64,000 nucleotides of DNA from Escherichia coli (GTDB lineage Bacteria > Pseudomonadota > Gammaproteobacteria > Enterobacterales > Enterobacteriaceae): the NCBI RefSeq assembly GCF_041886205.1, contig NZ_CP169030.1; one strand, given 5' to 3'. Of this stretch, positions 4,033 through 4,519 are shown piece by piece. A program made the translations under genes and the position numbers. The notes under the pieces were generated by a model. The model searched no databases, had not been told where the DNA came from, and saw only the letters and a list, made by a program, of their open reading frames with translations. Every line of letters begins with the position of its first letter. Within the stretch, counting starts at the first letter, position 1.

Positions 4033-4519
4033 GTCCCCCTCCAACACTATTCCCCCTCCTACGGGCGGCAACTAGCTCGTCTGGGCCGACACGTAAAGTT
4101 TCGAACATATCTGGTCTGAACCAGATGGTTCCTCCATCAAAAGCGATGAGATGAAGATCATTATCAAGAGTTTTGAGGGCTCTCCAAACACGAGTGTATG
4201 AACCTCCACTACAAACTGAAAGCTCTTTAACAGATAAGTTAACTTTGTTCGTATCAGGGATGTAGTGTGCGCACATTACTTGTACGAGGGAAACATAAAA
4301 ACTAACCATCGACGCGCTGATTTTATTTTTACGTTTGCCATGCGCTATTACAAGCAAACCTCTGATGAAGATCAGATGCTTGAAGGAGTCAAAATGAGCC
4401 CTTTTCTGGAGAAGGCTGCAAAACAGGTGAGGATACTTGCTGGAATCAATGTGAAGATCTGATTCAATCCCACCCGCTATTACTGAATGTGTTTCATGAT
4501 TAGCCACACCATCCTGCAC
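4025..4519 (-). CDS. Hypothetical ORF inside a low-GC insertion between tap and repA1; C-terminal part has a Rep-like winged-helix motif; start uncertain (possibly non-ATG)
   Basis: Open frame across the inserted segment; motif [24 protein letters not shown] resembles the wHTH of RepA proteins. Confidence 0.25.

Follow-up and report, generated by a model that had tools for sequence, protein, structure and literature searches.

A conserved cistron for a truncated RepA-like domain between tap and repA1 of IncFIC-typed Escherichia coli plasmids, and its possible place in a translational relay

Virulence and resistance genes of Escherichia coli are carried mainly by IncF plasmids, and the CopA–tap–repA circuit of R1 and R100 is the textbook antisense model of copy-number control. 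In plasmids of the I-complex, IncB and IncL/M (repY–repZ, repB–repA), a masked ribosome binding site (RBS) of the rep gene becomes accessible when an overlapping open reading frame (ORF) upstream of it, under antisense-RNA control, is translated; these leaders are short peptides without homology to Rep, and a pseudoknot is needed. In R6K, short π isoforms from pir, which provide a partial initiator alongside the full-length protein, modulate replication. In the IncFII plasmid R1, CopA blocks the translation of tap, and repA is translated only via coupling to tap (PMC5717011). Here we describe an IncFII-type replicon in a stretch of 64,000 nucleotides from E. coli contig NZ_CP169030.1 (assembly GCF_041886205.1; hereafter the window), in which a separate gene, orf160, lies between tap and repA1. 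The replicon is read on the minus strand, and coordinates are window positions unless another locus or record is named.

A first-pass annotation of the window had reported a low-GC segment between the end of tap (4500) and the start of repA1 (4032), and this segment is confirmed: it measures 467 nt from the tap stop to the repA1 ATG (475 nt when counted from GTG 4507), with a GC content in 150-nt windows of 0.39–0.44 over 4125–4574, compared with 0.55–0.63 within repA1. The segment is spanned by orf160, which is 164 aa long when read from GTG 4519 and 160 aa long from GTG 4507, the start that PGAP picks in near-identical records. The start codon GTG 4507..4505 and the tap stop share an 8-nt overlap (GTGGCTAA), as do the stop codon TGA 4027..4025 and the repA1 ATG (ATGGCTGA). 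The direct overlap of repA start and tap stop seen in R1 and R100 is absent; here the overlapping GTG 4507 opens orf160. The near-identical motifs that had been noticed on both flanks of the segment do exist, with TGGCTGATC correctly placed at 4023–4031 and TGGCTAATC at 4498–4506, not at 4495–4503; each of them is an IncFII stop/start overlap, and they do not mark an insertion footprint. Insertion of a mobile element with target-site duplication was rejected: the flanking repeats are these overlaps, and neither inverted repeats nor a transposase accompany them.

A near-twin of this replicon, in plasmid pE17EC0401-1 (L021), differs from the window by one mismatch in the tap ORF, and from nt 30 on the two repA1 genes share 99.2% identity. 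In L021 tap overlaps repA directly (GGTGTGACTGATCTTCAACAAACG), orf160 is absent and the same GTG starts repA; GTG 4507 is the canonical IncFII repA start site. Because a near-identical replicon lacks the 467-nt segment, the segment is extra DNA, which bears out the first-pass claim of additional low-GC sequence relative to R1/R100-type replicons; the polymorphic block comprises orf160 and the first ~39 nt of repA1. A hairpin predicted at the end of tap has its 5′ arm in tap codons and its 3′ arm containing an AGGA Shine–Dalgarno (SD) sequence and the orf160 GTG, and this stretch differs from L021 at three positions only. Both overlaps are retained in six further diverged loci. Counted over all seven loci with a readable downstream junction, that junction takes the form GGAGG..ATGACTGA, with the ATGNCTGA overlap in six of the seven and a 4-nt ATGA overlap in L004; at the upstream junction the start codon is GTG or TTG across loci (L004, GTGGCTGA).

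The product of orf160 resembles the N-terminal part of the neighbouring initiator. It matches the window RepA1 in BLASTP (34% identity over 98 residues, E 3e-9), and in hhalign the orf160 family (A1) aligns with RepA sequences (A4) over 145 columns (99.3%, E 7.8e-21), which upholds the earlier reading of a Rep-like winged helix-turn-helix (wHTH) in the ORF. Residues 6–152 are colinear with RepA1 7–171, and the wing region contains two deletions. The AF2 model of orf160, with a predicted local distance difference test score (pLDDT) of 65 overall and 81–87 over residues 71–130, has two helices followed by a helix/short-strand/helix–helix/β-hairpin winged-helix unit; the AF2 model of RepA1 (pLDDT 72) has a matching order of elements and is confidently globular to approximately residue 160, with long low-confidence helices from there to the C-terminus. 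The C-terminal helical region (RepA1 ~172–285) is missing from orf160, which ends at the equivalent of residue ~171. As modelled, orf160 encodes the N-terminal DNA-binding-type domain of an initiator and nothing else.

Orthologues of this protein (66–82% identical; 157–163 aa, and 198–199 aa in two with an N-terminal extension) derive from Salmonella enterica subsp. salamae, Citrobacter freundii, Lelliottia, Klebsiella and metagenomes. The order copB–(tap)–ORF–repA (285 aa), with the same overlaps, is found wherever the downstream junction is readable (Salmonella salamae, Citrobacter freundii and metagenome/Logan contigs); the Klebsiella locus reads copB–tap–ORF, and there the contig ends. Across eight sequences, variable sites fall at the three codon positions as 54/48/90, and the ratio of mean nonsynonymous to mean synonymous divergence (dN/dS, or omega) is 0.33 (bootstrap 95% confidence interval [CI] 0.24–0.44), whereas shifted frames give 0.91–0.97 and 4–21 stops. 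Constraint is strongest in the core (residues 61–140, omega 0.25), and the invariant residues are concentrated in two places, the predicted helix 104–117 (recognition helix) and the wing. By these measures orf160 is a real conserved gene under protein-level purifying selection; given such conservation and selection in several genera, the suggestion that the segment is a decaying remnant finds no support. A 65-aa ORF runs antisense to orf160 at 4265–4462 (+); the excess of third-position variation argues that, of the two, the orf160 sense frame is the selected one.

Nor is the spacing a peculiarity of one plasmid: the block is present in 518 of 72,556 PLSDB plasmids (497 copies at least 99% identical, 501 full-length) and in 525 of 5,426 complete E. 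coli genomes. Among the carriers are the laboratory F plasmid of NCM3722 (CP011496; 67.5 kb, 99.9% identity) and pAPEC-O1-ColBM, in which the ORF is annotated as a “hypothetical protein”; the sequence is common and already deposited. Near-identical records are typed as IncFIC, and MOB-suite assigns H1, H2 and pAPEC-O1-ColBM all to IncFIC. Literature searches, which did not cover the RepFIC papers of the 1980s, returned no functional description of orf160; the pAPEC-1 paper offers only a remark on an extra “repA” (PMC2626276).

The same unit can be followed into classical F. Window 6500..4234 is 99.87% identical over 2,267 nt to NC_002483 (L014), up to the terminal repeat of Tn1000 (gamma-delta), with the junction at 4190/4191 of that record, equivalent to window 4234 and to approximately codon 91 of orf160; the rest of orf160 and repA1 are not in the first 12 kb of the record. 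Classical F accordingly carries Tn1000 inside orf160, upstream of the expected repA1 start, and the window unit is the intact form of the RepFIC replicon. Older RepFIC papers are said to place the Tn1000 interruption in repA1; by the present comparison this detail of F biology is corrected, as the element in NC_002483 falls within orf160.

The repA1 SD, GGAGG (4042..4038), stands 5 nt before an ATG, whereas canonical repA has a weak GTG start. This difference favours the first-pass suggestion that RepA1 synthesis escapes CopA here, initiating at its own SD and AUG or from an internal transcript, which we nevertheless consider quite improbable. Both SD and AUG lie within a predicted hairpin of −21 kcal/mol, whose 5′ arm contains the SD, paired with CUCCUUC of repA1 codons 4–6, and whose tip is the AUG; individual folds of the orthologous loci L002, L003, L004 and L006 predict this pairing too, and so does a consensus fold of the seven loci (94.7% of cells paired). 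The CTCCTTC arm occurs only in insert-bearing replicons, the insert-less form being GATCTTCAACAA. An internal repA1 promoter was rejected, as a simple scan of the coding strand, itself a weak negative, found no sigma-70-like promoter within the segment or over 3900–5200. Escape from CopA also fits poorly with the stop/start overlap retained in all seven loci, and with copB, CopA and tap remaining intact beside orf160 in diverged lineages, which would be pointless if their control were bypassed; the arrangement is moreover common in large plasmids that MOB-suite classes as conjugative, where runaway replication would be ill suited.

We infer instead that orf160 encodes RepA-N, the middle cistron of a tap/RepA-N/RepA1 relay under CopA control, with a product that is probably a DNA-binding accessory protein, and we rate this reading at somewhat better than an even chance. 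It is favoured by the canonical start at the head of orf160, the conserved overlaps, the predicted RBS hairpin and the lack of a promoter in the segment. CopA antisense RNA would control the translation of tap; ribosomes finishing tap would start again at the canonical repA site, here the beginning of orf160; and ribosomes arriving at the orf160 stop would cover or melt the RBS hairpin and reinitiate 5 nt upstream at repA1. RepA1 synthesis would in this way remain under CopA/tap control, and uncoupling from that control is the less likely outcome given the tap-coupled start, the overlap and the hairpin. The relay product would be an accessory DNA-binding protein synthesised in parallel with RepA1 and might modulate or compete at RepA sites; competition there and auto-repression are both possibilities. 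The invariant recognition helix and wing, together with an omega of 0.33, argue that the protein itself matters.

Two other ideas concerning this junction were set aside. A programmed +1 frameshift from orf160 into RepA1 was considered for the tandem rare codons AGG AGG and a G-run before the stop, which resemble shifty contexts, and is unsupported: AGG AGG occurs in the E. coli allele only, the repA frame is open for only 5–13 codons upstream, and the P-site codons GGC/GAC would re-pair poorly in the +1 frame. The “ORF1 between tap and repA” of MiniR1-1 (PMC5883639) was discounted as a precedent: its mutagenesis primer falls within repA1 (GFTSRFDF region), and repA begins there with the canonical GTGACTGATCTTCAACAAAC. 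The AGG AGG pair is at 4060–4068 (minus strand CGT AGG AGG GGG), 12–13 codons before the orf160 stop. In this stretch the E. coli allele has one codon more than other genera, and the C-terminus is frameshifted in a variant of 163 aa (P0002, 36 member sequences).

Several observations weigh against the relay and an active RepA-N. The orf160 protein scores far below every curated family threshold (TIGR03474, 17.3 bits against a cut-off of 446.9) and the window protein has no Pfam match, so that family membership gives no basis for assigning it an activity; some orthologues have weak or faint precomputed PF02387 matches, and a Foldseek search of the model against PDB returned only generic wHTH regulators (CAP, IclR and MarR; E ~0.01). 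Constraint on orf160 is weaker than on repA (omega 0.33 compared with 0.04–0.26). At codon 28 (4424–4426) the window/F allele has Leu, whereas 13 other aligned members have Pro28 (HPFC motif); Leu28 is also present in the 99.9%-identical F copy of NCM3722, the common pAPEC-type allele has Pro, and the substitution may reflect relaxed constraint in the F lineage. The RBS hairpin rests on thermodynamics and sequence conservation, for which coding and SD constraints could also account, and none of its 19 pairs shows compensatory base changes. The strong SD and AUG make some independent initiation at repA1 possible, and the near-identical repA1 without orf160 in L021 means that orf160 is dispensable for RepA1 function as such. 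Finally, every plasmid checked has additional replicons, IncFIA and/or IncFIB, so that no ORF-bearing replicon was seen working alone among the checked carriers.

The origin of the ORF bears on a further alternative. Weaker matches in the profile search are proteins of 176–241 aa, among which P0029, P0036 and P0038 match the IncFII RepA models from 1 to ~175 (NCBIfam). In the distant IncFII-family loci L010, L011 and L012/13, the short ORFs start over the stop of a leader ORF (ATGTCTGA, GTGAATGA), overlap the rep gene by 8, 8 and 1 nt, and are R100-like, being 44–51% identical to the window RepA1; the downstream rep genes are of another subfamily, with no or marginal BLASTP similarity to RepA1 (one match, 30 bits), and in L010 copB lies upstream of the short ORF. 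A control region followed by the 5′ half of an old repA and then by a new rep gene suggests replacement of the rep gene behind a retained CopA/tap module, in which case the old N-terminal half of RepA would survive as a long leader. By extension, orf160 might be a relic, the 5′ half of an earlier repA that stayed in place when recombination brought in a new rep start, kept open only for the passage of coupled ribosomes and yielding an inactive polypeptide. This we regard as possible and on balance doubtful. Its colinearity with the RepA N-terminus, the use of the old start site, the resemblance to L010–L012, the weaker constraint and the low GC content at third codon positions (GC3 ~0.40) all agree with a translated spacer, as does the outcome of an exhaustive profile search of 1.84 billion representative proteins, in which no full-length member of the orf160 lineage and no strong-scoring relative longer than 199 aa was found. 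However, an open frame alone predicts a dN/dS of approximately 1 apart from avoided stops, far from the value observed for orf160 and further still from that of its wHTH core; the invariant residues lie on the predicted recognition helix and wing; and all short forms end at a single domain boundary (RepA ~170–180).

The block also has an unusual pattern of divergence. Over the seven loci no other part of the replicon is conserved so well, the mean pairwise identity of the block being 0.80–0.91 compared with 0.68–0.79 for repA and 0.52–0.69 for copB, and with orf160 identity above that of repA in 19 of 21 locus pairs, a comparison biased by the retrieval of these loci through similarity to orf160. 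Synonymous divergence (dS) of orf160 is 0.18–0.64, several-fold below that of repA (0.23–2.3), and its omega is higher; orf160 precedes two RepA clades ~37% apart in nucleotides. The high conservation of the block, its low dS and the near-identical flanks with and without it point to exchange by homologous recombination or to extra constraint at synonymous sites. Of the first-pass proposal of recombination with another replicon, duplication of or recombination with a rep gene is plausible, given the colinearity between the ORF and RepA up to residue 171; a one-off remnant finds no support. A bolder version of the relay, which we think unlikely, would make RepA-N a trans-acting “half initiator”, a DNA-binding domain lacking the C-terminal helices and produced in stoichiometric amounts with a RepA1 that acts in cis. 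It would add a third tier of control over copy number or incompatibility, for example by occupying RepA sites of its own or of rival IncFII origins; the cassette (ORF, masked RBS and first ~13 repA codons) would have spread among IncFII replicons by advantageous recombination, and the same solution would have arisen more than once at rep swaps behind a CopA/tap region that was kept.

Table 1. Features of the replicon and its surroundings in the window, with the distant loci in their own coordinates.
Feature	Coordinates	Strand	Details
orf160 (“RepA-N”)	4507..4025	-	160 codons; truncated divergent paralogue of the RepA N-terminal winged-helix domain
Predicted hairpin at tap end	4505..4540	-	minimum free energy fold of 4600..4470
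Predicted repA1 RBS hairpin	4004..4052	-	-21.3 kcal/mol; z = -4.2; 0/200 shuffles as good
tap leader peptide	4574..4500	-	24 aa; stop TAA 4502..4500
repA1, IncFII-type replication initiator	ATG 4032..3175	-	285 aa
CopA antisense RNA gene	4592..4682	+	Rfam RF00042, 99.4 bits (gathering score 60), full-length match
copB/repA2, transcriptional repressor gene	5065..4808	-	85 aa; ORF; WP_000083834.1
DnaA box TTATCCACA, repA-proximal end of oriR	2991..2999	-	direct reading
IS66-family element	263..2962	-	2.7 kb; tnpA 2909..2235, tnpB 2232..1888, tnpC 1865..297
Displaced distal oriR part	1..262	-	homology with insert-free relatives
repE (RepFIA)	63330..62578	-	NCBIfam NF010305, 534 bits
Distant locus L010	2501-4064		short ORF 183-190 aa and rep 338-339 aa (range over the distant loci)
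Distant locus L011	73-1654		as L010
Distant locus L012 (L012/13)	2501-4086		as L010

The genes around orf160 are those of an IncFII-type replicon (Table 1). RepA1 matches TIGR03474 (incFII_RepA) with 581.6 bits (cut-off 446.9) and NF010313 with 618 bits. Near-identical records name the tap product “RepA leader peptide Tap” (WP_001442103.1), and PF08048 is recorded for tap in the orthologous Salmonella locus. The copB product is labelled “replication regulatory protein RepA” in NZ_CP027256 (a 99.9% identical record), and PF10723 (RepB-RCR_reg) is recorded at the copB position in related loci. CopA is preceded by a promoter-like TTGAAC-17-TATACT (4557–4585, + strand). The DnaA box TTATCCACA is the consensus box reported for oriR of R1 and pEntH10407 (PMC5883639; PMC2762410).

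In this copy the origin is split. An IS66-family element, with NCBIfam matches to IS66 TnpA, TnpB and transposase, lies in oriR 21 bp past the DnaA box and is flanked by an 8-bp duplication (TCATAAGG) at 2970..2963 and 262..255; in blastn against five insert-free relatives, homology extends over 3400..2963 and resumes at 261..1. The window therefore has no intact oriR, whereas oriR is intact in L001, L018 and L020, and the IS66/oriR junction of the window has no contiguous match among PLSDB plasmids. The element probably inactivates the FIC/FII origin. With repE and sopA (872 bits) also present, RepFIA probably replicates this plasmid; the first-pass annotation was thus probably right to suggest RepFIA as the functional replicon, for a different reason, namely the splitting of oriR by the IS66-family element. 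The sopA gene and a candidate sopB occupy 59850–61996, with the ORF at 59850–60821 being a candidate sopB by size and position. The remaining backbone is F-like, with a tra region that includes the FinP/traJ 5′ UTR (39266–39377), and two hok/sok loci (sok at 5488–5644 and 45854–46025).

Such a broken origin, the Tn1000 interruption in classical F and the presence of other replicons in all checked carriers would suit a view of the whole FIC/FII replicon as redundant with RepFIA/RepFIB and decaying, with the low-GC segment as one lesion among others. We hold this to be very improbable: orf160 and repA have stayed intact, with purifying selection on both in several genera; nearly all of the PLSDB copies are at least 99% identical, and nearly all are full-length; and the lesions of F and of the window arose separately and later, in an architecture that is intact otherwise (L018, L020).

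Approximately one in ten complete E. coli genomes contains a variant of the antisense circuit with an extra, unnamed and conserved cistron for a truncated initiator. If the relay is correct, a control region can persist while the rep gene behind it changes; if the orf160 protein is active, it would be an unrecognised regulator of IncF replication or incompatibility. There are also consequences for annotation and replicon typing. The FII/FIC typing amplicons end at tap, and hence miss the orf160 polymorphism.

Set beside the described systems, the window is closest to IncFII R1/R100, with which it shares copB, CopA, a tap of 24 aa whose stop lies in an 8-nt overlap with the next start, a RepA1 of the R100 type and a downstream DnaA box. 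It differs in that the cistron coupled to tap would be orf160, in that repA1 follows 475 nt on with its own SD, ATG and predicted hairpin, and in that the first ~39 nt of repA1 depart from the canonical form. With RepFIC of F and the IncFIC-typed ColV/ColBM plasmids it shares near-identity up to Tn1000 (99.87% to F) and, in pAPEC-O1-ColBM, orf160 itself; unlike classical F, it has an intact tap–ORF–repA1 unit. Compared with the I-complex, IncB and IncL/M leaders, the window would have two successive leaders, the second of which is a 160-aa paralogue of a Rep domain. The likeness to R6K pir is by analogy only, in that a partial-initiator product would occur beside the full-length protein; unlike the short π isoforms, orf160 is not an internal start but a separate, diverged gene, with ~28–34% identity to its neighbour.

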